From: Escherichia phage APCEc01
Reading direction: 5' to 3' (one strand)
Sequence record: NC_029091.1
DNA: 64,000 nt
Part shown: piece after piece, positions 3,912 through 62,310 of the stretch
Layout: every line of letters begins with the position of its first letter
Numbering within the stretch: the stretch's first letter is position 1
Program-made: the position numbers and the translations under genes
The notes under the pieces: model-generated
Databases searched by the model: none
What the model was told of the DNA's origin: nothing
What the model saw: the letters and a program-made list of their open reading frames with translations, nothing else

Positions 3912-3950
3912 GTTTACATAAAGATGATGGTGTGTTACTATCATCCTATC
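3912..3950 (+). promoter_or_regulatory. early promoter (PeSL-like)
   Basis: GTTTAC -35 at 3912, TACTAT -10 about 18 nt downstream; short inverted repeat ATGAT/ATCAT around the -10. Confidence 0.5.
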
Positions 3951-3975
3951 AAATAAACAGCCTCAAGGAAATAAA

Positions 3976-4263
3976 ATGAAATCCTATAAAGAATTTATAT
4001 CACCTTTTGCTAACGTTTCTACTCTGACCGAAGCAACCCTTACTTCCGAAGTTATTAAAGCAAATAAAGGACGTGAGGGTAAACCAATGATTAGCCTGGT
4101 TGACGGCGAAGAAGTAAAAGGTACTGTTTACTTAGGGGATGGATGGTCTGCTAAGAAAGACGGCGCTACTATTGTTATCTCTCCGGCCGAAGAGACTGCA
4201 CTGTTTAAAGCTAAGCATATTTCTGTAGCTCAGCTTAAAATTATTGCAAAAACTCTTCTGTAA
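3976..4263 (+). CDS. ipI: internal head protein (IPI-like) with capsid targeting sequence
   Basis: 95 aa; N-terminus MKSYKEFISPF resembles the MKTYQEFIAE targeting sequence of T4 internal proteins; next to 57B as T4 ipI. Confidence 0.55.
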   Translation: MKSYKEFISPFANVSTLTEATLTSEVIKANKGREGKPMISLVDGEEVKGTVYLGDGWSAKKDGATIVISPAEETALFKAKHISVAQLKIIAKTLL

Positions 4264-4266
4264 GTA

Positions 4267-4306
4267 GTTTACATGCTGATAGGACTATGTTATAGTAGTC
4301 CTATCA
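4267..4306 (+). promoter_or_regulatory. early promoter (PeSL type)
   Basis: GTTTAC at 4267, TATAGT at 4291; inverted repeat TAGGACTA / TAGTCCTA flanks the -10; followed by CTATCAAAACAA box. Confidence 0.6.
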
Positions 4307-4333
4307 AAACAAATGAGTAAATGGAGAAATAAA

Positions 4334-4519
4334 ATGAAACGCGCTGAACTGATTCGTAATGTTGCTGTAGTAATTGCTTCAATGGCTTTTAGTTTTTCGA
4401 TGTTTGTAGGATTCATTTGCGGACTACTGACAACAACTGAAAATTCTATCTCATTGGTAGTAGCATTTCTAATCGGTTTAATCGCTATCGTTATGGATAA
4501 AATTGCAAAAGGTGAGTAA
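4334..4519 (+). CDS. small membrane protein
   Basis: ATG 4334 after GGAG; 61 aa with hydrophobic core; track start 4313 is an upstream extension. Confidence 0.5.
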   Translation: MKRAELIRNVAVVIASMAFSFSMFVGFICGLLTTTENSISLVVAFLIGLIAIVMDKIAKGE

Positions 4520-4520
4520 A

Positions 4521-4883
4521 ATGAAATATCACGTATATGCGGATTTTGAAGCAAATCCTTCTAAAGACCCTGATTGTCGTTTGATACGCAAACCATTTGA
4601 TTCAGCAGCTCAAGCATGGACTTGGATTAAATCTAAATCGCCTGGTTATATGTTCTTTGAAGTAGTCGATGACAATGGTACACTGCATCCAGAACCTACA
4701 GAAACTATTAATTTCCTTCTGTTTGCTGGTTACGACTGTTATCCTCTTGGTGGTATTGATGATCTTGTTGCTACAGGAAAAACTGTTGAGGCTCTTCGCG
4801 AAATTTATAAAAACGCAGAAGAAAATTTTGACTGGTACCAGATTGTCAGTGCACATACTTTTGAAGTGGTGGAACACTCATGA
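4521..4883 (+). CDS. hypothetical protein
   Basis: ATG 4521 (MKYHVYADFEA) 1 nt after previous stop, GGTGAG upstream; 120 aa. Confidence 0.5.
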   Translation: MKYHVYADFEANPSKDPDCRLIRKPFDSAAQAWTWIKSKSPGYMFFEVVDDNGTLHPEPTETINFLLFAGYDCYPLGGIDDLVATGKTVEALREIYKNAEENFDWYQIVSAHTFEVVEHS

Positions 4884-5170
4884 TTCTTTACGCTAAAGTA
4901 AAATCTGTCGAGAACGGATATGAAAGCGATCAACGTGCAGCTAAAGCACTAGTCGATGACTATGGTATTTTGACTAATTTTGAAGTTGAAAAGGTTTATA
5001 TCGACCGTTCATCTTCGCAAGTTAAATTACTCTGTGAAGATGATAAATTTAACACAGTTAACTTTGATTTCTTTATTGAAACAGAAAAAGGCCCTCTTGA
5101 ATATGATATTTTCAAGAATCCTTTGAAATTACGTTGCATTGAATATAATTACATTAATATGGTACGGTGA
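4880..5170 (+). CDS. hypothetical protein
   Basis: 96 aa; ATGA overlap with upstream gene. Confidence 0.5.
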   Translation: MILYAKVKSVENGYESDQRAAKALVDDYGILTNFEVEKVYIDRSSSQVKLLCEDDKFNTVNFDFFIETEKGPLEYDIFKNPLKLRCIEYNYINMVR

Positions 5171-5174
5171 GTAA

Positions 5175-5690
5175 ATGAATATTTGTTTAGGCAGTACAAT
5201 TCCTAAGGGTTACGTAATTGATGTCACTACTTGGGAAAATGACGGCGACAACTATAAAACTAAAACGTTGTTTGGTGTAGAAGAGCATGAGCTCCAACAG
5301 TTTAAATATCTCTTGAAGAAATTTAAGAGTCGTCATTCCAGCACTAAAGCTGAACGTTACTGTGGTAATACACCATTCAGTGATTGCTCGCTTTTAATCT
5401 ATGAATACTTGGTTGAAGGACTGTTCTCAGACCAGCTTTATCCAGAATTCATTAAAAAGGTCTTTGGTATTGAAGTCGACCTTGGTAATAAATCTGAAGA
5501 AGACGAATCGCGTGTATTTGACCTGTTCCATGAGAATGGATATTTAGTATCAGAAGGTCTCATTGATATTCTTGGCCATGCTTCTGAATATTATGATTAT
5601 GATTTCTTGCGTGTAGTTGAATGTGTTGAATTTGCTTATATTGAAGAAGAAATCGTTTTGCCGACTGTTAAAATGATTGATTTGCTTTAA
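5175..5690 (+). CDS. hypothetical protein
   Basis: 171 aa acidic protein; GGTGAG RBS. Confidence 0.5.
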   Translation: MNICLGSTIPKGYVIDVTTWENDGDNYKTKTLFGVEEHELQQFKYLLKKFKSRHSSTKAERYCGNTPFSDCSLLIYEYLVEGLFSDQLYPEFIKKVFGIEVDLGNKSEEDESRVFDLFHENGYLVSEGLIDILGHASEYYDYDFLRVVECVEFAYIEEEIVLPTVKMIDLL

Positions 5691-5769
5691 GAATTATGTG
5701 TTATTATTAATTCATACCCTCTATTACCAAAGGTGCTCTAAAGTGCCTTTCATAATAGAAAGTTATTTA

Positions 5770-5843
5770 GGCCCTGTAGCTCAATGGTTAGCAGCAGTCC
5801 CCTCATAAGGGAAAGGTTACCAGTTCGAATCTGGTCTGGGTCA
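5770..5843 (+). tRNA. tRNA with anticodon CAU (Met or Ile2/AUA-reading type)
   Basis: Hand fold: acceptor GGCCCTG/CTGGGTC (one U-U mismatch), T arm ACCAG-TTCGAAT-CTGGT, anticodon loop CTCATAA; no encoded CCA. Confidence 0.6.
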
Positions 5844-5849
5844 TATATT

Positions 5850-7144: not shown

Positions 7145-7172
7145 GCCCCTTCCTTATGGTTGGGGCCTTTTG
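7145..7172 (+). terminator. rho-independent terminator
   Basis: GCCCC...GGGGC stem followed by CTTTTGG; same family as the 6601 and 22839 terminators. Confidence 0.6.
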
Positions 7173-7204: not shown

Positions 7205-7245
7205 GTTTACTTCTTCTAAGGACATGATACTATAGACTTATCAAC
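7205..7245 (+). promoter_or_regulatory. early promoter (PeSL type)
   Basis: GTTTAC at 7205, TACTAT 17 nt downstream, then TAGACTTATCAAC box. Confidence 0.55.
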
Positions 7246-7261
7246 CATAGAGGAAAATGTT

Positions 7262-7765
7262 ATGAGTCTTTACACTGAACTGAATAAAAAATCTGAAGAA
7301 TCTGCTGAAACTATTTTTAAAAACGTGCAAAAGCGTATTTTGGAAAAGATGTACGATGCAGCATCTAAAGGTGAAAAATCTTGCCGGTTTCCGATGAGGT
7401 GTTCTTCTGATTTATGCGCAAATACTATTGAATGGCTGGAAAGTGAAGGTCTTACGGTAGAGAAAAACCCGGCGACTTCTATTGACGGCGAATCATATAT
7501 TAGTATTTCTTGGGATAAATCAAGGGTAGAAGAGAAAGATGGTGATTGGGTTGTAGATGTTAAAACTTCTGATGGTGGACGTTCTGTTGAAGTTTCAGCT
7601 GTAGTTAAAGGCACCCACGAACAAAGGACTTGGGGTTGGGGTGGTGAAGAAAAAGAAATTGTTCTTAGTGTGATTGCCAGGTCAACTAGTAATAAAATTG
7701 CACAAAGCATCATTGACGCTGCAATTGCTGAAGCAGAAAAAATTTGCAAAATTAAAAATAAATGA
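7262..7765 (+). CDS. hypothetical protein
   Basis: 167 aa; AGAGGA RBS; antisense ORF 7270..7779 judged spurious. Confidence 0.5.
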   Translation: MSLYTELNKKSEESAETIFKNVQKRILEKMYDAASKGEKSCRFPMRCSSDLCANTIEWLESEGLTVEKNPATSIDGESYISISWDKSRVEEKDGDWVVDVKTSDGGRSVEVSAVVKGTHEQRTWGWGGEEKEIVLSVIARSTSNKIAQSIIDAAIAEAEKICKIKNK

Positions 7766-7766
7766 T

Positions 7767-7810
7767 GTACAAACGCCAAGGATGGTGGTACTATAGACTT
7801 ATCAACTACA
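7767..7810 (+). promoter_or_regulatory. early promoter (PeSL type)
   Basis: GTACAA -35-like, TACTAT -10, TAGACTTATCAACTACAGAGG box. Confidence 0.5.
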
Positions 7811-7824
7811 GAGGAGTAAACAAA

Positions 7825-7989
7825 ATGACTACTTTAATTATTTGGTTCGATGAAAATGAAGAAACATACTGTGTGAATATTGGTGAAAGTCCAATGCCTG
7901 AATTTGAATCCTCGGATAAAAACTCTGTTGTATCTTGGGCTGAAGGTTATAAAGCAGCTAAAGGTGACGTTGAAATAATTTACATCTAA
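7825..7989 (+). CDS. hypothetical small protein
   Basis: ATG 7825 after GAGGAG; 54 aa (MTTLIIWFDENEE...). Confidence 0.4.
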   Translation: MTTLIIWFDENEETYCVNIGESPMPEFESSDKNSVVSWAEGYKAAKGDVEIIYI

Positions 7990-8020
7990 GTAAGTTTATG
8001 TTATAGTAATCACATCAAAT
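7979..8020 (+). promoter_or_regulatory. early promoter
   Basis: TTTACA at 7979, TATAGT at 8003 (18-nt spacer). Confidence 0.45.
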
Positions 8021-8035
8021 CAAGAGGAAAATAAA

Positions 8036-8263
8036 ATGGCTAAAGTTAGTATTGATGTCGTTGATTATGAATACACCGAAGAAGTTATTCGCAACCGACA
8101 CCCTGAAGTTCGTATCGATTCAGTCCAAGATTCCAAGTTCTGGACAACTGAGCTTAATCTGAGTGGTCCTTATGAAGCTGTTAAGAAGTTCATGGTTGAA
8201 GAATACTGCGAAGGCATGCACCCCGAAGACGCCAAGTTTTATGTCAATTTGATTAAAAAATAA
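8036..8263 (+). CDS. hypothetical protein
   Basis: 75 aa acidic protein; AAGAGGAAA RBS. Confidence 0.45.
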   Translation: MAKVSIDVVDYEYTEEVIRNRHPEVRIDSVQDSKFWTTELNLSGPYEAVKKFMVEEYCEGMHPEDAKFYVNLIKK

Positions 8264-8300
8264 TTTACAAACTCTTGAGAGCAGAGTATAATGCTCTCAT
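8263..8300 (+). promoter_or_regulatory. early promoter (PeSL type), near-duplicate of element at 38776
   Basis: TTTACA -35, TATAAT -10 at 8287, inverted repeat GAGAGC / GCTCTC flanking the -10. Confidence 0.6.
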
Positions 8301-8333
8301 CGGATAACAAACCACCAATTGAAAGGTAATAAT

Positions 8334-8927
8334 ATGAACACACTGAAGAAACTTGTTGAATTCATCCGCACTAAACTTGGTACTGCTATGGCTAAAAATC
8401 TGACTGTCGAAGAACAGTATAACGCAGCTGCAGATAAGTTGATTACCCAAATCAAAGAACTAAAAACGGCTTCTGTTAAATCTATTAATGAAGAAAAACG
8501 TATTCGCGAACTTGTTAATGAAAAGAACAAACAAGCCGCTTCTAAGGAACGTGAAATTCGTAAGCTCTTGGCTGAAGGACAAGATGTTACCATGCATGCT
8601 AAGCTTGGTCTTCTGTATCGTCGAACTGCCGAACAACTTAATACAAAGGCTGACGGGTATGCCGCTATGCGAATTGAAATTGCTCGTAAGGTGGTTGAAC
8701 TTGATGATGCTCGTCAGAATCTGGCAATCAAACTCGAATACATTCGTGAAACTCGAGCAGCCAATGCCCTTGGTATCTCTACGGCTGATGATGTAATTGA
8801 AATCGCTGCACTGACTAAGGTTGATATCGAAGACACTCTGACTCGTGTTGAAACGTTCAATGGCACTCCAGCCGGTGTCGAAACCACTTCTGCTGATGTA
8901 CAAGAATATATTAACTCTTTGAAATAA
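8334..8927 (+). CDS. coiled-coil protein, function unknown
   Basis: ATG 8334; 197 aa, heptad-rich. Confidence 0.5.
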
Positions 8928-9943: not shown

Positions 9944-10281
9944 CCGTATGGCCTTCTCTTGGTGAGAACATTCTAATTTTTATTATGAGTATTGGCATGG
10001 GATTTGCCTTTGGATTAGTTGGATTTCTTATTGACGGCGTTGTGTTAGGATTTATAGGGAACACTGGTGGATTCACAGACCAATGGCAGGACTTACGGTA
10101 TACCCAAGCCTTTGCATCCATCGCATCATTTTGTACTGTAGTCTATTTTTACTACGATTTTATAAACCACAACAAGAAAAATAAAAAGGTTTACGCTTCT
10201 CAAATGATTAGTTATAATGAACTCCTAGCTAGACGTGAAAATGAAACAATCGAAAACTTTATTAAGGAATGTAGAAAATGA
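9922..10281 (+). CDS. membrane protein with C-terminal ENFIKECR motif
   Basis: 119 aa, two predicted TM helices; ends ...ETIENFIKECRK overlapping next start (ATGA). Confidence 0.5.
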   Translation: MQKPQLLTVWPSLGENILIFIMSIGMGFAFGLVGFLIDGVVLGFIGNTGGFTDQWQDLRYTQAFASIASFCTVVYFYYDFINHNKKNKKVYASQMISYNELLARRENETIENFIKECRK

Positions 10282-11076: not shown

Positions 11077-11115
11077 GTTTACAACAAGATAGGGCTATGT
11101 TATAGTAGTCCTATC
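11077..11115 (+). promoter_or_regulatory. early promoter (PeSL type)
   Basis: GTTTAC at 11077, TATAGT at 11101, inverted repeat AGGGCTAT / ATAGTCCT. Confidence 0.6.
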
Positions 11116-11134
11116 AAAACAAATGGAGTCCACA

Positions 11135-11374
11135 ATGATTTATTACGAAAGTATCGGAACCAAAGTGGTTAGTAAAACCATTACTCGTGAAAAGTTTGCA
11201 AAGATATTCGATATGCGTTATAAAAAATCTGAACACAAAGGCATCCGATTCGAAGATGCGCACTGTACAATTTGCCCTTATAATGAAGACATAAACGGTA
11301 CAATCGTTCCATTGGTAGAGGCTTCACATGATGACCTCTGGGATGAATATAATATCGCATGTCGTGAAATTTAA
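11135..11374 (+). CDS. hypothetical protein
   Basis: ATG 11135 after GGAG; 79 aa. Confidence 0.45.
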   Translation: MIYYESIGTKVVSKTITREKFAKIFDMRYKKSEHKGIRFEDAHCTICPYNEDINGTIVPLVEASHDDLWDEYNIACREI

Positions 11375-12371: not shown

Positions 12372-12410
12372 GTTTACAAGGTCTGTAGTTGTTGATACTA
12401 TAGACCTATC
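12372..12410 (+). promoter_or_regulatory. early promoter (PeSL type)
   Basis: GTTTAC at 12372, TACTAT at 12396, TAGACCTATCAAAACAA box. Confidence 0.6.
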
Positions 12411-12439
12411 AAAACAAATGAGTGAATGGAGATATAAAA

Positions 12440-12640
12440 ATGACTACTTTGAATAAACGTTTCGGTAAAGCTAAACCTGGTTGTGCAGCAGAACGTCGTT
12501 ATGTTTTCGCTCAGTTAGAAGATGTAGAGTATCAGATTAATCAAGTTCACATTACTGGCATCGAGCCTATGTGTGGCCTTGAAGCTCTTCGTGAAGTTCG
12601 TGATGGGTATCGTCGTGACATCGAAGAAATGTCAAAATAA
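12440..12640 (+). CDS. hypothetical small protein
   Basis: ATG 12440 after GGAG; 66 aa. Confidence 0.45.
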   Translation: MTTLNKRFGKAKPGCAAERRYVFAQLEDVEYQINQVHITGIEPMCGLEALREVRDGYRRDIEEMSK

Positions 12641-12641
12641 G

Positions 12642-12680
12642 TGTACAAACTGATAGGACTATGTTATAGTAGTCCTATTA
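12642..12680 (+). promoter_or_regulatory. early promoter (PeSL type)
   Basis: TGTACA -35-like, TATAGT at 12665, inverted repeat TAGGACTA / TAGTCCTA. Confidence 0.55.
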
Positions 12681-12698
12681 AAACATGAGGAGAATATT

Positions 12699-13004
12699 AT
12701 GAAATTAGGCGAAACCAACCGAATTGGTCTTTTAACAATATTTGTATCACTTTTTTACGCAGCTCTTTCTGTTGCAGTATTACAAAAGGCTTACAGTATG
12801 GATGGTGTTCCTGGTTTTGTATTCTTATCGCCGTTTTTGCTATTCGTTGGAGCATTGTTATTATATGCCACGACTAGTTTCGACCATAACGTCTGGGTCA
12901 ATTATAAATGTAAATTGTCTGAAGAAGAACACGCAGAAGCTCGTAAAAAAGCTATTGAATCTACCAATCTAGAAAATTTCATTAAAGAATGTCGAGGAAA
13001 ATAA
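12699..13004 (+). CDS. membrane protein with C-terminal ENFIKECR motif
   Basis: 101 aa, two hydrophobic helices; ends ...NLENFIKECRGK. Confidence 0.5.
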   Translation: MKLGETNRIGLLTIFVSLFYAALSVAVLQKAYSMDGVPGFVFLSPFLLFVGALLLYATTSFDHNVWVNYKCKLSEEEHAEARKKAIESTNLENFIKECRGK

Positions 13005-15666: not shown

Positions 15667-15700
15667 GTTTACTTCCTCCAAGGGTTTTGATACTATACAT
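15667..15700 (+). promoter_or_regulatory. early promoter
   Basis: GTTTAC at 15667, TACTAT at 15691. Confidence 0.5.
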
Positions 15701-15723
15701 TCATCAACTACTTGGAGGAAATT

Positions 15724-16137
15724 ATGACTCGTATCAATTTAACACTTGTTTCTGAACTGTCCGACCAACATCTTATGGCTGAGTATCGTGAATTACCACG
15801 CGTATTTGGTGCAGTCCGTAAACATGTTCAAAACGGTAAACGTGTAAAGGATTTTAAAATCTCTCCAACATTTATCTTAGGCACAGGTCACGTAACATTC
15901 TTTTACGACAAACTCGAATTTTTACGTTTACGTCAAATCGAGCTAATCGCTGAATGCTTGAAACGTGGTTTCAAAATCAAGGACACGACTGTCCAGGATA
16001 TTTCCGACATTCCTGTAGAATTTCGTAATAATTACGTCCCGTCCGAAGCGTCCATTGCGATAAGTCAAGCACGCTTAGATGAAAAAATTGCTCAACGTCC
16101 GACTTGGTACAAATACTATGGTAAATCAATTTACTAA
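15724..16137 (+). CDS. denV: endonuclease V (pyrimidine dimer DNA glycosylase, DenV)
   Basis: ATG 15724 after GGAGG; [34 protein letters not shown]... matches T4 DenV; 137 aa. Confidence 0.9.
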
Positions 16138-16144: not shown

Positions 16145-16405
16145 ATGAAAATGTATCAAGAATTTATCATTGAAGTAGATGCCAAAGACCCCAAATTTAA
16201 AGTTAAAGCTTTCATTGGTGATGCGGAAGACTTTGGCTCATTAAAACGTAATGGGTATTCTTTCTTGGGTGGCGATGGTAAAGAAATCAACACCTATGCA
16301 AAACGTAGTGAAATTGCTTATGTTGTAGTAAGTCCTAAAGTAGATGTTGACGATATTGGATACGATTTTAACAACTTCGGAATTATTTCTGGCGGTAAAG
16401 CTTAA
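16145..16405 (+). CDS. internal-protein-like protein with capsid targeting sequence
   Basis: ATG 16145; N-terminus MKMYQEFIIEV; 86 aa. Track start 16079 lies inside denV. Confidence 0.5.
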   Translation: MKMYQEFIIEVDAKDPKFKVKAFIGDAEDFGSLKRNGYSFLGGDGKEINTYAKRSEIAYVVVSPKVDVDDIGYDFNNFGIISGGKA

Positions 16406-16408
16406 ATT

Positions 16409-16445
16409 GTTTACGCTTAAGTATTAATATGGTATAATTACTCTA
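16409..16445 (+). promoter_or_regulatory. early promoter
   Basis: GTTTAC at 16409, TATAAT at 16434, CTCTATCAAAACAAACAAGG box. Confidence 0.5.
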
Positions 16446-16468
16446 TCAAAACAAACAAGGAAACAAAA

Positions 16469-16783
16469 ATGAAAACGTATAAAGAATTTATTGCAGAATC
16501 CGCCAACCAACGCGTTGAAGGTGGTTATATTTGGATTGAACAAGTTGAGCCACCGAGCCGCACTTCTACAGGTAAATGGAAAATTACTGTTGACGGTCCT
16601 GGCGGTAAACGTAGGACTCTTAAAGAAATTAACGGGTACTATGAAGAAGCTCTTTCGGATGCAGGAACTTACATGATGCAAATCATGATTAAAAACCCTG
16701 AAAACCGTTTTGCAGCTAAAGTCTTCCGTCGTATTGGTAATAAACTTTATGATGCATACTCTAAAAACTTCCCTAAAGAATAA
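16469..16783 (+). CDS. internal-protein-like protein with capsid targeting sequence
   Basis: N-terminus MKTYKEFIAES; 104 aa. Confidence 0.55.
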   Translation: MKTYKEFIAESANQRVEGGYIWIEQVEPPSRTSTGKWKITVDGPGGKRRTLKEINGYYEEALSDAGTYMMQIMIKNPENRFAAKVFRRIGNKLYDAYSKNFPKE

Positions 16784-16808
16784 CATAAATTAAAACAATA
16801 GGAACAAA

Positions 16809-17138
16809 ATGAAAACATATCAGGAGTTTATCACTGAAGTTACATTATCTGCGGAACAGAAAGCTGCTATCGAAGAAGGTAAAAATCCCAAAGTAACATA
16901 CAAAGTAAATAGTAAAGGCGTTTTTGATGGCTTGGTTCAAGACCCTGAATTGAAAAAAGCTCTTTCTAAAACTAATGCGTACTTTGCTCCTAAATTTAAC
17001 ACAGCCGGTGTACTTATTGGATTGGACGTATTCAACTCTAAAGGTGTTCTATCTAATGCCTTTGGTTATGCCGCTAACAAAATTACCAAAGCAGCATGGG
17101 AATCCAATACCAAACAAGCTCAAAAGCCTAGAGTATAA
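16809..17138 (+). CDS. internal-protein-like protein with capsid targeting sequence
   Basis: N-terminus MKTYQEFITEV; 109 aa. Confidence 0.55.
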   Translation: MKTYQEFITEVTLSAEQKAAIEEGKNPKVTYKVNSKGVFDGLVQDPELKKALSKTNAYFAPKFNTAGVLIGLDVFNSKGVLSNAFGYAANKITKAAWESNTKQAQKPRV

Positions 17139-17311
17139 TTCTTGCCTAATAAAGGGAAACGCAACCTCTCCTCATGAACGTCGAGTCCTCTGAGTGATGT
17201 ACCTTTTCCAACCTGTAATAAGGTCGAGCCCAAGTGCGGTAATGGGTTTACATAGCGAGTCGAAGGACCTAACATGTGCCACGGAATGGCCCAAACCTTA
17301 AGAGAAATAAT

Positions 17312-19224: not shown

Positions 19225-19272
19225 GTTTACTTCTCCTCTAGTTGTGTTACTATAGACCTGTCAACTAGAGGA
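19225..19272 (+). promoter_or_regulatory. early promoter (PeSL type)
   Basis: GTTTAC at 19225, TACTAT at 19248, perfect 10-bp inverted repeat CCTCTAGTTG / CAACTAGAGG flanking the -10. Confidence 0.6.
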
Positions 19273-19281
19273 GAAATCAAA

Positions 19282-19740
19282 ATGACTATCAATTCAGACG
19301 TTTTTATCCGCCGTAATAAACTCCGTCGAATCTTTGAAACGGAGTTCCGCAAAATAAATGCCGGTATAAAAGATGCTGCAAAGTCTCTTGGACTACCAGG
19401 CTTTCATATCAAGTATTCTCAACATCTCTTAGATCGTGCCATCCAGAGAGAAATAGATGAGAATTACGTTTTTGAATTATTTCATAAAGTAAAAAATCAT
19501 GTTAAAGAAGTTGCAGAATTTTTATCAATGCCGGCACGTCCAGATGTTGATGAAGATTTTGTCGAAGGTGTCGAATATCGCCCAGGCCGTTTAGAAATAA
19601 CTGATGGAAATCTTTGGTTAGGACTTACAGTTTGTCGCGAAAATCCGGCATTCAAAATGAAGACTCTTCAATGCAGAATGGCTATTATTAACAATAAACG
19701 ACTACCAGGAAAAGCTTCTAAAGCAGTGATTAAAATCTAG
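19282..19740 (+). CDS. regB: RegB site-specific endoribonuclease
   Basis: MTINSDVFIRRNKLRRIFETEFRKIN...LPGKASKAVIKI closely matches remembered T4 RegB; 152 aa. Confidence 0.8.
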   Translation: MTINSDVFIRRNKLRRIFETEFRKINAGIKDAAKSLGLPGFHIKYSQHLLDRAIQREIDENYVFELFHKVKNHVKEVAEFLSMPARPDVDEDFVEGVEYRPGRLEITDGNLWLGLTVCRENPAFKMKTLQCRMAIINNKRLPGKASKAVIKI

Positions 19741-20635: not shown

Positions 20636-21095
20636 AAACTATATCAAGGGCGATATTGTCGCCCTGTTTTCTAAAGGTAATAATATTGCTCATGGGTGTA
20701 ATTGTTTTCATACAATGGGCGCGGGTGTGGCAGGACAATTAGCAAAGGCTTATCCAAAAATTCTGGAAGCCGATAAACTTCAAACCGAATTCGGAGACGA
20801 GTCTAAACTCGGGACTTATTCGGTTTATGAAAAATATTTTAAGACCCATAAAGCTTATTGCTTTAATCTTTATACACAGTTTGAGCCGGGACCTAATTTT
20901 GAGTACTCTGCTTTAATGAATTGTATAATAGAATTAAATGAATTCGGAAAGAATAAGATAATAAAGCCTGTAATTTATATGCCAAGAATTGGTGCAGGTA
21001 TTGGTGGTGGAAACTGGGATGTCATCGAAGAGATTTTAGATACGTATTCTACTAAACTAGAAATTGTGATTGTTGATTGGGAACCGTTATTATGA
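20598..21095 (+). CDS. macro domain (ADP-ribose binding/processing) protein; start uncertain
   Basis: HGCNCFHTMGAGVAGQL and PRIGAGIGGGNWDVI match macro-domain glycine-rich motifs; no ATG near 5' end (TTG 20598 or GTG 20628). Confidence 0.55.
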   Translation: MTLIIEDLQQVIKNYIKGDIVALFSKGNNIAHGCNCFHTMGAGVAGQLAKAYPKILEADKLQTEFGDESKLGTYSVYEKYFKTHKAYCFNLYTQFEPGPNFEYSALMNCIIELNEFGKNKIIKPVIYMPRIGAGIGGGNWDVIEEILDTYSTKLEIVIVDWEPLL

Positions 21096-21304
21096 ATATA
21101 CATTATCCACATCCATATGACCCAAAGAATAAGGCAGTAATTATTCGTCAATGGGAACGCATTTGTCGTACCAAATGTCCAATTAATAGTCCACATGATG
21201 TAGATAAAGACTACATCGGAACATTCGTTGAATATACCTTTATTGATAAGAAAGGCCGTAAACAACATGTAGAAGAATATTGCTTAAAGGTGACATGGCT
21301 ATGA
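21092..21304 (+). CDS. hypothetical protein
   Basis: ATG 21092 overlapping macro-domain gene stop; 70 aa. Confidence 0.4.
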   Translation: MNIHYPHPYDPKNKAVIIRQWERICRTKCPINSPHDVDKDYIGTFVEYTFIDKKGRKQHVEEYCLKVTWL

Positions 21305-21507
21305 GTCAAACAAAAATTCTTACAGGTGCTAAATGCGAAAAATGCGAATGGCCTGTAGTTTTTGCTTTATGCAATGACGAAATGGCTTGTGATTTTGATT
21401 ATTGGTGTTACTGTTCGAACAAAGGTTGTAGCAATCATAAAGGTGAAGGGTTTTACTCAGGATTTTACCCTTACCCAGATTTCGTTAAAGAAGGTGAACC
21501 TAAATGA
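21295..21507 (+). CDS. Cys-rich small protein (possible zinc-binding)
   Basis: 70 aa with CEKCEW...CDFDYWCYCSNKGC; ATG 21295 after AAGG. Confidence 0.4.
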   Translation: MAMSQTKILTGAKCEKCEWPVVFALCNDEMACDFDYWCYCSNKGCSNHKGEGFYSGFYPYPDFVKEGEPK

Positions 21508-22838: not shown

Positions 22839-22868
22839 AGCCCCTTCCGAAAGGTTGGGGCTTTTTGG
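22839..22868 (+). terminator. rho-independent terminator
   Basis: AGCCCCTTCCGAAAGGTTGGGGCTTTTTGG, near-identical to the 6601 terminator. Confidence 0.7.
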
Positions 22869-22877: not shown

Positions 22878-22930
22878 GTTTACTTCTCCTCAGGTTGTGT
22901 TATAGTAAACCTTACTTACTAGAGGAGAAC
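22878..22930 (+). promoter_or_regulatory. early promoter (PeSL type)
   Basis: GTTTAC at 22878, TATAGT at 22901, inverted repeat TCTCCTC / GAGGAGA. Confidence 0.55.
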
Positions 22931-22933
22931 GTT

Positions 22934-23113
22934 ATGTCACGTAAAGAAAAAATTTCTAAGTTAATGTTTTTGATTGAAGAGTACGCTAATGCGGTATCTG
23001 ATTGGGAAAATGCTCATGGTTGCGAAGATGGAGACATCGACATTAACAGAGCTATGAAAAAGATGGCTGAAGCCCACACCGAATTGCAAATGTATGTTAA
23101 CGAGATTATGTGA
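22934..23113 (+). CDS. hypothetical small protein
   Basis: ATG 22934 after AGAGGAGAA; 59 aa. Confidence 0.4.
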   Translation: MSRKEKISKLMFLIEEYANAVSDWENAHGCEDGDIDINRAMKKMAEAHTELQMYVNEIM

Positions 23114-23120: not shown

Positions 23121-23327
23121 ATGCTTTACGATTATACTGGAAAATCTGAAGACGGTGTACTTGAACTTTTACCTGAAAGCGCTGAAGATGATGATACGGT
23201 GGTGATGTTTTGTAAAAATGGCCCTGGGGATAAGGGATGGATTTATCTTCGTCAAGAAAATGACTTAATTGTTTTGGGCCCAAAACAAGTTGAAGAACTT
23301 TATCAACATTTAAAACACAATCGGTAG
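23121..23327 (+). CDS. hypothetical protein
   Basis: ATG 23121; 68 aa. Confidence 0.4.
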   Translation: MLYDYTGKSEDGVLELLPESAEDDDTVVMFCKNGPGDKGWIYLRQENDLIVLGPKQVEELYQHLKHNR

Positions 23328-23370
23328 TTTACATCTTGGTAGGACTATGTTATAGTAGTCCTATCAAAAC
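23327..23370 (+). promoter_or_regulatory. early promoter (PeSL type)
   Basis: GTTTAC at 23327, TATAGT at 23351, inverted repeat TAGGACTA / TAGTCCTA, CTATCAAAACAAACGGAG box. Confidence 0.6.
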
Positions 23371-23491
23371 AAACGGAGAACAAAATGAAACTTTTGCTTA
23401 TCGCTTATGTTGTAGTACAATACAATTATCCGATGTTTACTTATAACATGGTAAACGGCATAGTGAATCTTATTGAAACGAGTATGGTAAA

Positions 23492-24687: not shown

Positions 24688-25673
24688 TGAAAACAATTAT
24701 GAAAGGCTACTTTGGTAGCCACCTTTATGGAACGTCTACTCCTGAATCTGACGTCGATTTTAAAGAAATTTATGTCCCTCATGCTCGTGATATCTTGACC
24801 GGTAACGTTAAAGAACACATGAGCAAGAACACGAATAACACATCTTCTAAGAACACAAAAGACGACGTGGACCATGAGTTATATAGTCTCAAATATTTCT
24901 TTAAACTAGCTGCGGATGGTGAAACCGTCGCATTAGATATGCTTCACACTCCACAAAGTCTAGTAGTTAAATCTGATTTGCCTGATGTATGGAAGTATAT
25001 TCAAGATAACAGGTCTCGTTTCTATACCACTAACATGAAATCTTATTTAGGGTATGTCCGTAAGCAAGCTTCTAAATACGGTGTCAAGGGTTCTCGACTG
25101 GCCGTTCTTCGTCAAGCCCTTAAACGTTCTAATGAATGGGGACAATACTTTGATAATGGTGCAGTAATTCGTTTATCACATATGAAGAATGTTCTGCCCG
25201 TAGGTGAATTTGCTTCGTGGGTTGAAACCGAAAACAAGAAAACAGGTAAGCAAACATTCTATAATCTGTTAGACCGTAAATTCCAAGATACGTTAACCAA
25301 TAAAGAGTTCAATGCCATCCTGGTTAAACTTGAAGAGAACTATGGCGAACGTGCTCGTAAGGCAGAAGCCAACGAAGGTATTGACTGGAAAGCATTGAGT
25401 CATGCATGTCGTGGTGGACTTCAATTATTGGAAATTTACAAAACCGGCGACCTGGTTTACCCACTTCAGGATGCTCCATTTATTCTCGATGTTAAGCTTG
25501 GTAAACATACGTTTAAAACTGTACAAGAATTCCTAGAAGATATCGTTGACCAAGTTGAACATGCGTCAGAACAAGCCGCTAAGAACGGTATGCAACAAAA
25601 AGTAGATATGAGTTTCTGGGATGATTTCCTTGAGCAAGTCTATCTCGAAAATCATAATTCTTACTATAAATAA
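24684..25673 (+). CDS. Pol-beta superfamily nucleotidyltransferase-like protein
   Basis: N-terminal GSHLYGTSTPESDVDF fits the NTase motif G[SG]x(9-13)Dh[DE]; 329 aa; function unknown. Confidence 0.5.
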   Translation: MMKTIMKGYFGSHLYGTSTPESDVDFKEIYVPHARDILTGNVKEHMSKNTNNTSSKNTKDDVDHELYSLKYFFKLAADGETVALDMLHTPQSLVVKSDLPDVWKYIQDNRSRFYTTNMKSYLGYVRKQASKYGVKGSRLAVLRQALKRSNEWGQYFDNGAVIRLSHMKNVLPVGEFASWVETENKKTGKQTFYNLLDRKFQDTLTNKEFNAILVKLEENYGERARKAEANEGIDWKALSHACRGGLQLLEIYKTGDLVYPLQDAPFILDVKLGKHTFKTVQEFLEDIVDQVEHASEQAAKNGMQQKVDMSFWDDFLEQVYLENHNSYYK

Positions 25674-25704
25674 ATAGATAAATAACCATTAACTTGAGGT
25701 AAAT

Positions 25705-25971
25705 ATGAAAAAATTAGTAATTGGTTTATTCGCGGTAATGATGGCATTCTCTGTTGGTGCTACCACGGGCGCAGGAGCTGATGGTAACCAGTCTTCTGCG
25801 CCTTCTAACGGTTCGGTAAATGCATCACATTCTCAGGGTATTGAGAACATTAAATCAAGCTATATTAATAGCACGGCCGGACAAGCAACTGAAGCATGGT
25901 CAAAGGGTCGAGTAGTTACTCGCTCTGTATTCTGTGATATGCCTAATTATGTTGCTAAGTGTGATAAGTAA
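25705..25971 (+). CDS. small secreted protein
   Basis: 88 aa with signal peptide MKKLVIGLFAVMMAFSVGA and two C-terminal Cys. Confidence 0.45.
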   Translation: MKKLVIGLFAVMMAFSVGATTGAGADGNQSSAPSNGSVNASHSQGIENIKSSYINSTAGQATEAWSKGRVVTRSVFCDMPNYVAKCDK

Positions 25972-25976
25972 ATGTG

Positions 25977-25995
25977 GGGACCTTCGGGTCCCTTT
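25977..25995 (+). terminator. candidate terminator hairpin
   Basis: GGGACC-TTCG-GGTCCC hairpin followed by TTT. Confidence 0.45.
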
Positions 25996-26013: not shown

Positions 26014-26050
26014 TAAAAAGTAGTGTACATGCTTTTAGGATATGATACTA
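26014..26050 (+). promoter_or_regulatory. early promoter (PeSL type)
   Basis: TGTACA -35-like, TACTAT at 26036, TAGACCTATCGAAACGAAATGAG box. Confidence 0.5.
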
Positions 26051-26089
26051 TAGACCTATCGAAACGAAATGAGTAAATTGGAGAATAAA

Positions 26090-27070: not shown

Positions 27071-27208
27071 GCTTATAGGAAGTTCTGAGGTAACAAAAGC
27101 CATAAAGATGAATAATCATATGGCTTACCTCAAAGAAGGACACCAGGAACCTACTGAGGGCATAGAAATATTTAAAAATAATGATGTACAAATCAAAGAG
27201 GATATGTT

Positions 27209-27540: not shown

Positions 27541-27554
27541 ACTGGAGGTAAAAC

Positions 27555-38473: not shown

Positions 38474-38476
38474 TAA

Positions 38477-38516: not shown

Positions 38517-38536
38517 CTTAAAATGAGGAAAATATC

Positions 38537-38815: not shown

Positions 38816-38842
38816 GATAATAAAATAACCGAGGAAAATAAT

Positions 38843-39665: not shown

Positions 39666-39737
39666 TATCTCGTGCTTTAAGATAGGTCTCTAAATATTAT
39701 GATATAATAGACCTATGAATTGAGCCAAGAGGTACTT

Positions 39738-40295
39738 ATGACTGAACAAAAACCTAAAAATAACTATGTGAATAATAAAGAGCTTCTCGCCGCTATAATC
39801 GAGTGGAAAAAGGAGCTCTTAAATAATAAAGACCCAAACAAAATTATTCGTCAGAATGATACCATCGGTTTAGCAATTATGCTTATCGCCGAAGGCCTGT
39901 CCAAACGTTTCAACTTTTCAGGATATACCCAGTCTTGGAAGCAGGAGATGATTGCAGATGGGATTGAAGCCTCTATTAAGGGACTTCATAATTTCGACGA
40001 AACTAAGTACAATAACCCACATGCATACATAACTCGAGCTTGTTTTAATGCTTTTGTCCAACGTATCAAAAAAGAACGTAAGGAAGTTGCAAAGAAATAT
40101 AGTTACTTCGTTCATAATGTCTACGACAGTCATGACGATGATATGGTAGCGTTGGTAGATGAAACGTTTATTCAAGACATCTACGATAAAATGACGCATT
40201 ATGAAGAATCCGCTTATAAAGCTCCTGGGGCTGAAAAGAAGGAAGTTGTTAGCGATTCGCCTAGTTTGGATTTTTTATATGAGGATGACAATTGA
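39738..40295 (+). CDS. 55: late transcription sigma factor gp55
   Basis: ATG 39738; [78 protein letters not shown]... matches T4 gp55; 185 aa. Confidence 0.88.
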
Positions 40296-60289: not shown

Positions 60290-60295
60290 TAAAAA

Positions 60296-60316
60296 GGAGA
60301 CTTCGGTCTCCTTTCG
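60296..60316 (+). terminator. rho-independent terminator
   Basis: GGAGAC-TTCG-GTCTCC hairpin followed by TTTCGGGGTTT. Confidence 0.6.
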
Positions 60317-60318: not shown

Positions 60319-60350
60319 GTTTACATCTTCCTCTAGGCATGATATGATGT
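60319..60350 (+). promoter_or_regulatory. early promoter
   Basis: GTTTAC at 60319, TATGAT about 18 nt downstream. Confidence 0.45.
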
Positions 60351-60377
60351 ACTTACACAAACCAAGAGGAAAACATT

Positions 60378-60752
60378 ATGAATATGTCTCAAGCAATTTT
60401 TACTGCAATCACCGAAAACACAACTGTTGAAGTAGTTTCTCCGCTGGCAACCTACGTTATTCTTGCTCCTAAAACTATTGTATCTCGTATGGAAAACACA
60501 GGCAAACGTATCGTACAAATAGTTGGAGCTGGAAATCAAAAACTTGATTATCTACGAACCATAAAAGCTTATGAACATTTCCAACTCGAAAAAGGTTCTC
60601 CTATCCAGGTAGAACTCGTAAATGGTGATATCGTTCGAGCAATGTTCCATCATTTCTATGCATTGAATGACCCATCTAAAGCAGTTCGTTTAATTGCATA
60701 CGACGCAAACCAAAACGAAATCAACGCAGATGTATCTAAATTACGTTTTTAA
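60378..60752 (+). CDS. hypothetical protein
   Basis: 124 aa; AAGAGGAAAA RBS. Confidence 0.5.
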   Translation: MNMSQAIFTAITENTTVEVVSPLATYVILAPKTIVSRMENTGKRIVQIVGAGNQKLDYLRTIKAYEHFQLEKGSPIQVELVNGDIVRAMFHHFYALNDPSKAVRLIAYDANQNEINADVSKLRF

Positions 60753-60800
60753 GTTTACTTCTCCAGTAGTTGTGTTATTATAGACCTATCAACTACTGGA
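60753..60800 (+). promoter_or_regulatory. early promoter (PeSL type)
   Basis: GTTTAC at 60753, TATTAT at 60776, inverted repeat TCCAGTAGTTG / CAACTACTGGA. Confidence 0.6.
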
Positions 60801-60807
60801 GAACAAA

Positions 60808-61125
60808 ATGAAAACCATCGATTGTAAAGCAGAATTTAAGATTTTTTATCACGGTTCAAGTAGTTCAGCTAACATCGAAAACATGCTTTGTCCTCCTGAA
60901 GAAACAGGAGTTCTGTCTGAAACTGGACGTAAGAAAAACTTGGATCGTGTATTCTTTACTGAAGATATCGGTTTAGCAAAGATTTATGCAGGACGAGCAG
61001 CACGCTCTTATGGAGGTGAACCACGTCTCTATCGAGTAATTTCTCCGGTAGATGTAGTTCAAATGAATGATACTAAAGGCGCTACAGTTTATCACGCTGA
61101 ATGGGCATTTTGCGAGGAAATATGA
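60808..61125 (+). CDS. hypothetical protein (speculative ADP-ribosyltransferase-like His/Glu pattern)
   Basis: 105 aa; FYHGSS ... KIYAG ... YHAEW segments; assignment speculative. Confidence 0.45.
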   Translation: MKTIDCKAEFKIFYHGSSSSANIENMLCPPEETGVLSETGRKKNLDRVFFTEDIGLAKIYAGRAARSYGGEPRLYRVISPVDVVQMNDTKGATVYHAEWAFCEEI

Positions 61126-61313
61126 GCAAATTAACTAAAGTTACTTTTATCGGTTGGTTTAAAAGCGGTGAGATGTTCACTAAAGATATCATGTTATCAG
61201 GTGATCGCGAAGAAATCGAGTGGGTTACGGTACAACTTGCTGAAGTGAACAATGCATTAGTTAAAGCATTTATTAATGACGAGAAAGTTTTTGAAGCTGA
61301 TTTCAGAGGATAA
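61122..61313 (+). CDS. dmd: Dmd (discriminator of mRNA degradation; antitoxin against RnlA/LsoA-type RNases)
   Basis: ATG 61122; MSKLTKVTFIGWFKSGEMFTKDIML...VNNALVKAFINDEKVFEADFRG resembles T4 Dmd; 63 aa. Confidence 0.7.
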   Translation: MSKLTKVTFIGWFKSGEMFTKDIMLSGDREEIEWVTVQLAEVNNALVKAFINDEKVFEADFRG

Positions 61314-61314
61314 T

Positions 61315-61527
61315 ATGTATTCAACTGTGTTTAAACCATCAACATACGAATTTGCATCAACTACACAATGGAAAGCTCTTATTCTGGAAGGATGGGAACT
61401 AATGATGGACTGCGAAGCATCTGAAAAGTTTCCACACGGCAAAGTGGACTTCGTTAAATTTGCTGTACGTCCGACTAAACGACAGATTCGTCAAGAAAAA
61501 CGCAAATTTCGCAAAAGTTTAAAATAG
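61315..61527 (+). CDS. small basic protein with C-terminal VRPTKRQIRQ tail
   Basis: ATG 61315; 70 aa; C-terminus parallels ORF 32915..33085. Confidence 0.4.
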   Translation: MYSTVFKPSTYEFASTTQWKALILEGWELMMDCEASEKFPHGKVDFVKFAVRPTKRQIRQEKRKFRKSLK

Positions 61528-61529
61528 CT

Positions 61530-61560
61530 GTTTACAAGCACCACATACTGTGTTACTATC
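61530..61560 (+). promoter_or_regulatory. early promoter
   Basis: GTTTAC at 61530, TACTAT at 61554. Confidence 0.5.
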
Positions 61561-61587
61561 TTTCTATCAACTACAGAGGAAATTGAA

Positions 61588-61956
61588 ATGAAAAAATTAA
61601 TCGCTTTAGCAATGGTGTTTGGATTAACCGGATGTGGTGCCCATGGCTTTATCCCTAATAACGTCGGCCAATTGATTTACAATCCGAATGTTAAACAGTA
61701 CGACCAACCTAAAGTTGAAGTGGAAGACCCGGTTACTGTAGGTAATCGAATGATTCAAGCTGATGCCCATGCTCAACGTTATCGTGACTCTGATACCGTA
61801 GCATTGTCAAAAGAACAACGCGTTAAAGAACATTGTCTACAGGCTACTGAAATCGCATTCATTCGCTATGTTGAAACAACTGGTAAAGAGCCTACCCAGA
61901 AACAAATCGCGAATAACTACGTCCAGTGTATTGAACGTTTAAACAAATTTAATTAA
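61588..61956 (+). CDS. lipoprotein
   Basis: 122 aa; signal peptide with lipobox LTGC (MKKLIALAMVFGLTGCG). Confidence 0.55.
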   Translation: MKKLIALAMVFGLTGCGAHGFIPNNVGQLIYNPNVKQYDQPKVEVEDPVTVGNRMIQADAHAQRYRDSDTVALSKEQRVKEHCLQATEIAFIRYVETTGKEPTQKQIANNYVQCIERLNKFN

Positions 61957-61959
61957 TTG

Positions 61960-61990
61960 GTTTACGCAAAAGTTAAAACAAGATACTATA
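61960..61990 (+). promoter_or_regulatory. early promoter
   Basis: GTTTAC at 61960, TACTAT at 61984. Confidence 0.5.
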
Positions 61991-62017
61991 AACATAACAA
62001 ATCAAGAGGAAATTAAC

Positions 62018-62266
62018 ATGGAATTATTCGTAGCTAGTTCAGTGGCAGTTTTAATCGCAGGTATTGGTTCAATCATCATTTACATGTTGCCTTGGGTAAT
62101 CGCACTTATTCGTGGCACAAAAAGCACAACAGCAATCTTCTTTGTATCTTTACTCTTTAACTGGACGATGGTTGGTTGGATTGGAACTTTAATTTGGTCT
62201 ATCGTTGCCGAAAAGAAATCGGCTCAGCAGCCTCAACAAGTAATTATTATTCGTGAAAAAGAATAA
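62018..62266 (+). CDS. small inner-membrane protein
   Basis: 82 aa; two TM helices. Confidence 0.5.
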   Translation: MELFVASSVAVLIAGIGSIIIYMLPWVIALIRGTKSTTAIFFVSLLFNWTMVGWIGTLIWSIVAEKKSAQQPQQVIIIREKE

Positions 62267-62270
62267 ACTT

Positions 62271-62310
62271 GTTTACATTATGGATGGACTATAGTATAAT
62301 AGTCCTATCA
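62271..62310 (+). promoter_or_regulatory. early promoter (PeSL type)
   Basis: GTTTAC at 62271, TATAAT at 62295, inverted repeat GGACTAT / ATAGTCC. Confidence 0.6.

Follow-up and report, generated by a model that had tools for sequence, protein, structure and literature searches.

What is the role of inverted repeats that surround promoters whose own transcripts cannot contain them in full? The question is posed by a 64,000 nucleotide (nt) stretch of Escherichia phage APCEc01 (NC_029091.1; hereafter, the window), which reads as the early region of an RB69-like Mosigvirus. Here, a cassette composed of an early promoter, a ribosome-binding site (RBS) and, in many copies, an inverted repeat recurs in front of one gene after another. 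In the explanation favored here, to which a probability of roughly 0.65 is assigned, these copies are early expression cassettes, and their inverted repeats would fold as RNA hairpins in transcripts that read through from upstream. In one class (B), the hairpin would mask the Shine–Dalgarno (SD) sequence of the downstream gene, in another (A), it would be an intercistronic element, and the homology between the cassettes would mediate recombination.

T4-type early promoters in the window

The pattern GTTTAC-N16-19-TAnnnT has 27 matches in the window, compared with 4.0 ± 2.0 in shuffled sequences, and 24 of the 27 lie on the + strand. Five matches (1222, 16581 and 55039 on the − strand, 52804 and 17246 on the + strand) are spurious and the other 22 are real. 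A profile derived from 24 seeds recovers these 22 and adds nine copies with variant −35 boxes (ATTTAC, GTGTAC, ATGTAC and GTATAC), for a total of 31 elements, all 31 on the + strand. The elements span positions 3912–62332, at 3.9–39.7 kb and 60.3–62.3 kb, among small hypothetical open reading frames (ORFs); the profile search found none in the replication-gene core, at 39.7–60.3 kb. When placed on the coding sequence (CDS) annotation of OM960734, 27 of the 31 are directly 5' of CDS starts and four (10189, 31116, 32836 and 38051) are intragenic.

The shared sequence is the T4-type early promoter consensus, GTTTAC-N17/18-TGn-TAnnnT, with the exact −35 in 22 copies and a variant in nine. Among the 27 intergenic copies, TGn is found in 20 and a CTATCAA-like box in 14, and the SD reads GGAG in 13 and GAGG, AGGA or AAGG in the remainder; the exact CTATCAA has 20 matches on the + strand of the window and a single one on the − strand. 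The 25 nt upstream of the −35 of these copies are typically 72–88% A+T (~63% in the genome), with lower values in copies that have a terminator ahead. The full published RegB/S1 consensus, GGAGRAYARAA, is matched by three cassettes (23327, 26023 and 60753). A generic sigma-70 scan of the window shows no enrichment (77 sites versus 62 and 70 in shuffles), so that only the T4-specific motif is informative.

In T4, firing of the early promoters by the host sigma-70 RNA polymerase in the first minutes of infection is established. The T4 records NC_000866 and AF158101 contain no promoter features, but the same elements are found in T4 at the orthologous positions of regB, denV and ipI, with copy 19225 corresponding to the regB promoter. 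According to reviews, the T4 regB promoter is a typical early promoter, and T4 early promoters combine UP, −35, TGn and −10 with further conserved regions. The likeness extends to the −35, the 17–18 nt spacer, TGn, the −10, the A/T-rich upstream sequence, the orientation and the orthologous positions; nothing essential differs, except that the window also uses GTGTAC, ATGTAC and ATTTAC as −35 boxes. From orthology and consensus, we infer that the copies are standard T-even early expression cassettes that would fire with the host sigma-70 RNA polymerase.

Composites of this kind are known as promoter early stem-loops (PeSLs). In RB49 and phi1, a PeSL consists of an early promoter along with a stem-loop, and its 3' end carries the SD and ATG; PeSLs have been proposed to act as terminators, and recombination has been demonstrated (Arbiol 2010). 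They have been extended to PST/T4 and nt-1/KVP40, with the T4/PST consensus TTTACW-N17-TAYWAT and stems of the form AGNA-loop-TCNT (Comeau 2014). The window stems TAGGACTA/TAGTCCTA and GGAAGA/TCTTCC fit this description. The motif reported in the first-pass annotation of the window (GTTTAC, a 17–18 nt spacer and a −10, in about 27 copies) is accordingly real, and its reading as a PeSL-like T4-type early promoter is right, given the fit to the consensus and the orthology of copy 19225; the CTATCAA-like box and the GGAG RBS that it also ascribed to the cassettes hold for 14 and 13 of the 27 copies, respectively, and are missing from the rest. Elements of this kind have been described before, and only their presence in this Mosigvirus is new; for an RB69-like phage, the rediscovery of PeSLs and T4-type early promoters is ordinary and mainly of use for annotation.

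Hairpin classes of the cassettes

Each element was folded from the −35 to the ATG, and an inverted repeat was found in ~21 of the 31 copies: 11 strong copies of class A, seven of class B and three of class C. The summed energy of the spacer-to-downstream duplexes is −347.6 kcal, compared with −176.9 ± 11.5 for shuffled spacers, and the complementarity is individually significant (p ≤ 0.05) in 18 of the 31. All cassettes and terminators located below are on the + strand, and cassettes are referred to by their first position.

The class A hairpin surrounds the −10, with its end at about +1. The strong copies begin with 3912–3978, upstream of the internal head protein gene, with GATGATGGTG/TACTATCATC around the −10 (p = 0.046), and 4267–4336, with an 11–12 base pair (bp) hairpin (GATAGGACTA-TGTTATAG-TAGTCCTATC), a CTATCAAAACAA box and GGAG. 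These are followed by 8263–8336 (−35 ATTTAC; TGAGAGCA-GAGTATAA-TGCTCTCA), by 11077–11137 (GATAGGGCTA/TAGTCCTATC) and 12372–12442 (AGGTCTGTAGT/ACTATAGACCT), each with one G·U pair, by 12641–12701 (−35 GTGTAC; the TAGGACTA hairpin) and by 23327–23387 (TTGGTAGGACTA/TAGTCCTATCAA, with the RegB-type motif GGAGAACAAAA). The last four are 27499–27557 (AGGTCTAT/ATAGACCT), 38476–38539 (−35 ATGTAC), with a perfect 14-bp hairpin, ACGATAGGAAGATA-TGTTAT-TATCTTCCTATCGT, 39675–39740, a degenerate cassette upstream of gene 55 with a poor −35 (TAGGTCT/AGACCTA), and 62271–62332 (GGACTAT/ATAGTCC). Weak versions are found at 26023–26092 (−35 GTGTAC; a 4-bp hairpin only), at 38776–38845 (−35 GTATAC; a weakened form of the 8263 hairpin) and at the intragenic site 38051–38080 (a GAGTAT/ATACTTC repeat). 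Both hairpins quoted in the first-pass annotation exist as written, TAGGACTA-TGTTATAG-TAGTCCTA at 4267 (fold z = −6.2) and GATAGGAAGATA-TGTTAT-TATCTTCCTATC at 38476 (fold z = −7.5); the placement of the −10 within a perfect inverted repeat, presented there as a general property, applies to the 11 strong and two or three weak copies (~40%) and not to the others.

Class B was overlooked in that annotation. Here, the part of the spacer just 3' of the −35 pairs with the SD region, as at 7205–7264 (TTCTTCTA:TAGAGGAA; p = 0.006), at 15667–15726, upstream of denV (TTCCTCCAAG:CTTGGAGGAA, with TCTCCTGTAG/CTACAGGAGA in the T4 ortholog), and at 19225–19284, upstream of regB, where 14 bp are paired (TTCTCCTCTAGTTG/CAACTAGAGGAGAA; fold z = −5.3). 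The other copies are 22878–22936 (TTCTCCTC:GAGGAGAA), 37348–37408, a short version (TCCTC:GAGGA and an inner helix; p = 0.026), 60319–60380 (TTCCTCT:AGAGGAA; p = 0.004) and 60753–60810, again with a 14-bp pairing (TTCTCCAGTAGTTG/CAACTACTGGAGAA). In class C, the hairpin lies wholly within the spacer: GCCAAGGATGGTGG at 7765–7827 and AACCAAGGATGGTT at 29140–29198, both with the −35 ATGTAC, and the same hairpin as the latter at 30136–30196.

Several cassettes lack a significant hairpin: 7978–8038 (−35 ATTTAC), 16409–16471, 61530–61590, 61960–62020 and the intragenic promoter-like sites 10189–10218, 31116–31145 and 32836–32865. The site at 31116–31145 is strong (GTTTAC, TGT, TATAAT) and coincides with the extreme 3' end of a CDS. 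The ATG of the following gene (31144) overlaps the −10 of this site, and a transcript from the site could therefore not contain that start codon.

Cassettes 27499 and 60753 have an identical 29-nt right half, TGTTATTATAGACCTATCAACTACTGGAG, and different spacers. The spacer of 27499 pairs with TAGACCT (class A) and that of 60753 with CAACTACTGGAGAA (class B). This natural 'arm switch' supports selection for pairing itself.

Evidence for selection on the hairpins as sense RNA

An alignment of RegB led to 39 loci (regB ± 10 kb) in IMG/VR, with RegB protein identity of 55–98%, which represent several genera and include JS98, STML-198, CIP9 and CHI14. In the window, T4 and these loci, the profile detects 252 promoters, all on the early (+) strand, of which 201 are unique. 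Of the 201 unique promoters, 47% have a stem that scores at least 8 and whose 5' arm lies upstream of the −10, compared with 1.9% of the spacer shuffles. The stem-bearing promoters split into 48 of class A and 46 of class B, and 57 distinct stem sequences are found across the genera. The ends of the 3' arms are distributed bimodally, at 10–20 nt or at 25–30 nt after the first base of the −10, with none between. Those of class A have a median of 14 nt, that is, end at about +1/+2, and the 25–30 nt group, 4–8 nt ahead of the ATG, is class B; all of the 24 unique class B stems (24/24) cover the SD core and have the 5' arm in the spacer. The early promoters of T4 show the same arrangements: stems of class A (14 bp) at ipII and of class B at denV and regB, and a stem of 13 bp at 58005.

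The pairing is retained while the sequence changes. The arms at the regB promoter come in at least 11 sequence versions that preserve the spacer–SD pairing, which is kept in nearly every lineage (TTTTCCTCTTGACTG/CAGTTAAGAGGAGAA, TTTCTCCTCTTTATG/CATAAAGAGGAGAAA, ATCTCCTTTTAGT/ACTAAAAGGAGAT, ATCTCCTGTAG/CTACAGGAGAT and ATCCTCATTTG/CAAATGAGGAT). RNAalifold returned no structure for a MAFFT alignment of 28 regB upstream regions, in which the register of the SD and the stems varies slightly between lineages; stems were instead searched for in individual sequences, with shuffles, partner shifts and mismatch types as controls. In 67 ortholog groups, pairs altered on both sides are still paired in 68% of the cases (824/1204), compared with 33–43% when the partner is shifted by 1–2 nt, counts that are pseudo-replicated by phylogeny but clear in their direction.

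The non-Watson–Crick pairs inside the 57 unique stems include 17 G·T/T·G, two C·A and two A·A (binomial p = 0.0007; p = 0.001 for 17:2 under a composition-matched null with a G·T share of 0.53), and in class A alone, G·U pairs number 11 and A·C pairs 0. A signal in double-stranded DNA, or a cruciform, would suffer equally from G·T and A·C, so the tolerance of G·U alone speaks for sense-strand RNA. Altogether, the evidence points to the stem-loops being under selection as sense RNA structures.

These observations also bear on the possibility that the repeats act as DNA, in the form of cruciforms or palindromic protein-binding sites that regulate initiation (e.g. the early shut-off) or trigger site-specific recombination. 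The repeats do overlap the −10, the classic operator position, the mechanism of early-promoter shut-off is unexplained, and cassettes coincide with rearrangement junctions. A symmetric double-stranded structure or protein site, however, gives no bias like the 17 G·T versus two A·C, the arm sequences vary so widely by cassette and lineage that no single protein could read them all, the arms of class B are ~20–25 nt apart and end in the SD, and the mapped crossovers fall in the −35 and the −10/+1 box, outside the stems. Action at the DNA level is thus very improbable.

A further alternative is that the hairpins are functionless passengers of a mobile promoter cassette, enriched through repeated copying of a few founders. 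The copies are indeed not independent, given that the TAGGACTA hairpin recurs at 4267, 11077, 12641, 23327 and 62271 and is also found in a Tequatrovirus-type contig. Such copying is hard to reconcile with the 57 distinct stem sequences across genera, with the maintenance of pairing in orthologous promoters via compensatory changes, with the tolerance of G·U but not A·C pairs, or with the identical right half of 27499 and 60753, in which each of the two differing spacers finds its own complementary segment. This alternative is scarcely credible.

A possible role in read-through transcripts

Transcription by sigma-70 polymerase starts ~7 nt after the −10. The 5' arm of the hairpins is a part of the untranscribed spacer, so that the hairpin cannot form in the transcript of the cassette's own promoter and requires RNA that was initiated upstream. 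The cassette would thus consist of an A/T-rich UP element, the GTTTAC −35, a 17–18 nt spacer, TGn and the TAnnnT −10, followed by the CTATCAA start-site box, a short A-rich leader, the GGAG/GAGG RBS and the start codon, and the inverted repeats would be RNA hairpins rather than DNA signals, formed in extended early or middle transcripts.

For class B, the predicted probability that the SD is unpaired drops from 0.51 in the own transcript to 0.02 in read-through RNA (from 0.55 to 0.00 at 7205 and from 0.75 to 0.00 at 60753), compared with 0.43 and 0.31, respectively, for class A. The spacer of class B would, then, be an anti-SD sequence, and translation of the gene behind it, like its exposure to RegB, would be possible essentially from transcripts of its own early promoter alone, such that its expression would end once this promoter shuts off. 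Such putative anti-SD spacers account for about one-quarter of the copies in the window and about one-half of the hairpin-bearing promoters across the Tevenvirinae genera. That they constitute a conserved RNA-level 'transcript-of-origin' switch, which ties translation and RegB sensitivity of genes of the regB and denV type to the own early promoter, is a tentative proposal, with odds somewhat short of even. According to reviews, RNA secondary structure shields GGAG from RegB, and most middle and late transcripts escape RegB; class B pairing would yield just such an escape in long transcripts. If the switch is real, it helps to account for the sharp stop of early protein synthesis as well as for the RegB escape of GGAG sites in long transcripts, and class B would offer a simple contribution, open to testing, to the shut-off of early genes and to the selectivity of RegB for its targets. 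Accessible PeSL papers and T4 reviews gave no description of spacer–SD pairing at early promoters (older subscription-journal literature was outside the search), and spacer-to-downstream complementarity is not discussed in the accessible reviews of T4 early promoters. The accessible literature likewise yielded no maps of transcription starts or of termination in T4.

The same geometry could be taken to mean translational coupling, whereby a ribosome that terminates at the upstream gene melts the 5' arm and frees the next RBS. In three class B copies, the upstream stop is indeed 1–5 nt before the −35 (stop/cassette 15665/15667, 19220/19225 and 60752/60753). In the other four (7138/7205, 22832/22878, 37237/37348 and 60289/60319), however, the stop is 30–111 nt away with a terminator between, and even in the close cases the ribosome, with its known footprint size, would reach only the first few nt of a 10–14 bp helix. 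Coupling is, accordingly, quite improbable.

In class A, the helix would extend from about −27 to +1/+2 and leave the ribosome site free. The element is most likely an intercistronic hairpin, which could serve as a structural insulator, as an attenuator or as a barrier at 3' ends; of the steps of the proposed scheme, this is the least certain.

Terminators and the published model

According to the published PeSL model, the stem-loops are transcription terminators or attenuators, with each cassette starting a fresh, insulated transcript. In the window, no T-run follows any of the cassette hairpins, the tails of which read CAAAACAAA or ATCAAAATG, and none of these hairpins is among the terminator-like sites of a window scan. 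Canonical GC-rich terminators with T-runs are present elsewhere, most of them seen on folding the 75 nt upstream of the cassettes: at 7145–7171 (GCCCCTTCC..GGTTGGGGC followed by TTTT), ~35 nt 5' of cassette 7205; at 22839–22867 (AGCCCCTTCCGAAAGGTTGGGGCT and TTTT), just 5' of 22878; at 25975–25992, a terminator-like hairpin (GGGGACCTTCGGGTCCC) 5' of 26023; at 37236–37254 (GACCAGGTGCCGCCTGGTC and TTCTTT), 93 nt 5' of 37348; and at 60293–60314 (AGGAGACTTCGGTCTCCT and TTT), after gene 41 and adjoining cassette 60319. The terminators at 25975–25992 and 60293–60314 have CTTCGG/TTCG-type tetraloops and GC-rich stems; cassette hairpins are AT-rich.

A canonical terminator is located within 100 nt upstream of four of the seven class B copies and of none of the 11 strong class A copies (hand-computed Fisher p ~ 0.011), that is, class B copies tend to stand at the starts of transcription units. 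This distribution can be read in two ways: class B starts insulated units in which read-through is blocked both transcriptionally and translationally, or class A replaces a terminator. The latter reading is what the terminator model expects of substitutes, and the model can also draw on the stability of the stems (−15 to −20 kcal/mol) and on the report that one RB49 PeSL stem-loop cut lacZ expression as strongly as rrnB T1 (Arbiol et al.). Apart from the missing T-runs, the model is at odds with the 3' arm of class B being the SD itself, 4–8 nt from the ATG, and with the composition of the stems, which is polyG/polyC in the tested RB49 elements and AT-rich in the T-even ones. By sequence criteria only, no terminator or attenuator is recognizable in the window cassettes, and the label 'terminator' for their stem-loops is unsupported. 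As a general account, termination is unlikely; attenuation by class A is a live rival.

The lacZ result weighs against read-through hairpins as the explanation of the cassettes, and so do several other points. No significant hairpin is found in 10 of the 31 copies upon folding from the −35 to the ATG. In two small groups (loci L033–35 and L038–39), the regB promoter has no spacer–SD pairing. The sequences compared are related, and the counts overstate the number of independent events; strand-biased mutation might inflate the G·U excess, although 17:2 is far past the expectation from composition. The translational consequence of class B is a thermodynamic prediction. Finally, 27499 is of class A in the window and its T4 counterpart, the orthologous nrdC.8 promoter, is of class B, and such switching between A and B among orthologs could reflect one common function (e.g. 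as an RNA 3'-end barrier), with SD masking being incidental.

Recombination at the cassettes

The ~60 nt cassette shared by unrelated genes would serve as recombination homology independently of the hairpins, with recombination between cassettes adding or removing the ORFs that lie between two of them. The pairs singled out in the first-pass annotation as near-identical are the most similar cassette pairs (87% identity for 8263/38776, 84% for 4267/23327 and for 4267/11077, and 82% for 29140/30136; the median for all pairs is 61%), although 'near-identical' is somewhat generous. Their downstream proteins are unrelated. Tandem gene duplication was considered as the source of similar cassette pairs and rejected on account of this lack of homology.

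Comparison of the window with MM02, mobillu, O157 typing phage 3 and three contigs from IMG/VR, all six of them close relatives, revealed 14 rearrangement events; in eight of these, at least one junction lies within a cassette. Three of the eight are clean indels of ORFs flanked by two cassettes. The ORF 12440–12640, flanked by cassettes 12372 on the left and 12641 on the right, is missing in contig L007, where a single hybrid cassette, with the crossover at the −35, replaces the two. At cassette 4267, single in the window, O157 typing phage 3 has an extra ORF between two TAGGACTA cassettes. At 26023, L007 has an extra ORF between two cassettes, with respect to which the window cassette is chimeric, with the crossover in the −10/+1 box. 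Further junctions are found at 16407, 19221 and 23347; similarity to the relative L005 stops at cassette 23327, and a 250-nt deletion in L007 has its right junction at the intragenic site 10189. The mapped crossovers are in the conserved promoter boxes, outside the stems, and the shared homology of the cassettes is enough to account for them.

Alignment with related phages, which had been suggested as a check on gene shuffling, thus bore out the gain and loss of ORFs between cassettes in close relatives in three cases. The prediction that the most similar pairs mark recombination junctions fared less evenly: it agrees with the three indels and with the eight of 14 events at cassettes, but no junction was found at 8263/38776 or 29140/30136 in the six relatives, and the other six events (21085–21496, 25671–25969, 27071–27237, 32.1–32.8 kb, 33512 and 34021) are away from cassettes. 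The cassette-flanked indels are clean natural examples of gene shuffling mediated by promoter homology.

Exchange might also reach across genera. The Tequatrovirus-type contig L009, with a RegB only 77% identical, carries at 9412 the cassette with the 11-bp hairpin of window copy 4267 (TGATAGGACTA-tgttatag-TAGTCCTATCA), which suggests either cassette exchange between genera or very strong conservation.

Just 3' of cassette 16409, which marks its left edge, there is a rearrangement hot spot (16176–17273) with at least four alleles among the six relatives, in which one or two small ORFs are replaced or deleted. In MM02, gene 49 and nrdD are separated by an insertion of 867 nt (window 34021–34077; L044 9066–9887) that does not involve a cassette; it carries an ORF, probably a free-standing homing endonuclease gene.

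Comparison with known elements

The cassettes resemble PeSLs in being composites of promoter, stem-loop, SD and ATG that are intergenic, cluster in hyperplastic regions and flank ORF indels of close relatives; the 11 strong class A and three class C copies have the stem-loop that defines a PeSL. They differ in that their stems are AT-rich and lack a U-tract, so that a terminator function is not evident, and in that the five published positional subclasses omit the spacer-to-SD class. According to Arbiol et al., the elements at the T-even IP locus (Repoila 1994) use T4 early promoters as their basis, with stems that are weaker and AT-rich. In the published model, PeSLs terminate transcription and are sites of DNA recombination, whereas selection on sense RNA is favored by the data presented here; RNA hairpins that would form by read-through only and have no terminator features call into question the 'promoter-terminator' reading for T-even phages.

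Class B has its closest parallel in the RBS-sequestering hairpins of T4 late genes (e, soc, 49, I-TevI/II/III and segB) and of mobE of Aeh1. In these, a promoter is located in or near the 5' arm, long transcripts hide the SD, and transcripts from the proximal promoter, which lack the 5' arm, are translated. The embedded promoters of these genes are late (or middle), unlike the sigma-70 early promoter of class B, and the hairpins delay translation, whereas class B would confine it to the first minutes of infection. Class B has the helix over the SD typical of e, soc, 49 and I-TevI but no late (gp55) promoter; it works like this family without being a member in the published sense. As of a 2010 review, the genes regulated by such hairpins were all late, and an SD-occluding class would extend a mechanism thought to be late-only to early genes, including that of the RegB nuclease.

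Other comparisons concern single parts of the cassette. The RegB/S1 sites share with it the GGAG of the SD (13 of 27 cassettes) and, in the three cases above, the full consensus, but they are one component only, and the GGAG of class B would be double-stranded in long transcripts. In bacterial operons, stabilizer hairpins and REP-like elements without a U-tract lie between the cistrons of polycistronic RNA. Class A is similar, consisting of stable intercistronic stem-loops without a U-tract, but it coincides with a promoter (−27 to +1) and is absent from its own transcript, and a stabilizing effect is hypothetical.

Genomic context and other features

A 10-kb sample of the window is 99.7% identical to Escherichia phage vB_EcoM_SCS57, and matching T4-like phages number in the hundreds. 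The window corresponds to the final 64 kb of the 99.7%-identical record OM960734, a Mosigvirus (RB69-like). Identity to T4 at the DNA level is ~70–80%, and the window is colinear with the T4 reverse complement from ~76 to 19 kb. The gene order is 1, ipI, tRNAs, e, denV, regB, tk, nrdC, 49, nrdD, 55, 47, 46, 45, 44, 62, regA, 43, uvsX, 41 and beyond, with every gene of this series on the + strand, which is the direction of early transcription in T4.

Two non-coding segments stand apart from the cassettes; an Rfam scan of the window returned two tRNAs only and no family for either segment. The segment 6284–6633 is 92% identical to T4 71173–70825 (the end of tRNA-Arg, together with rnaD and rnaC, two small stable RNAs), and its flanks are only ~70% identical. 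The 173 nt at 17139–17311 are relatively GC-rich and are kept in phage mobillu; they contain the pattern match 17246, without a profile match, and their predicted structure is not unusual (fold z = +1.46). This segment may be a gene remnant.

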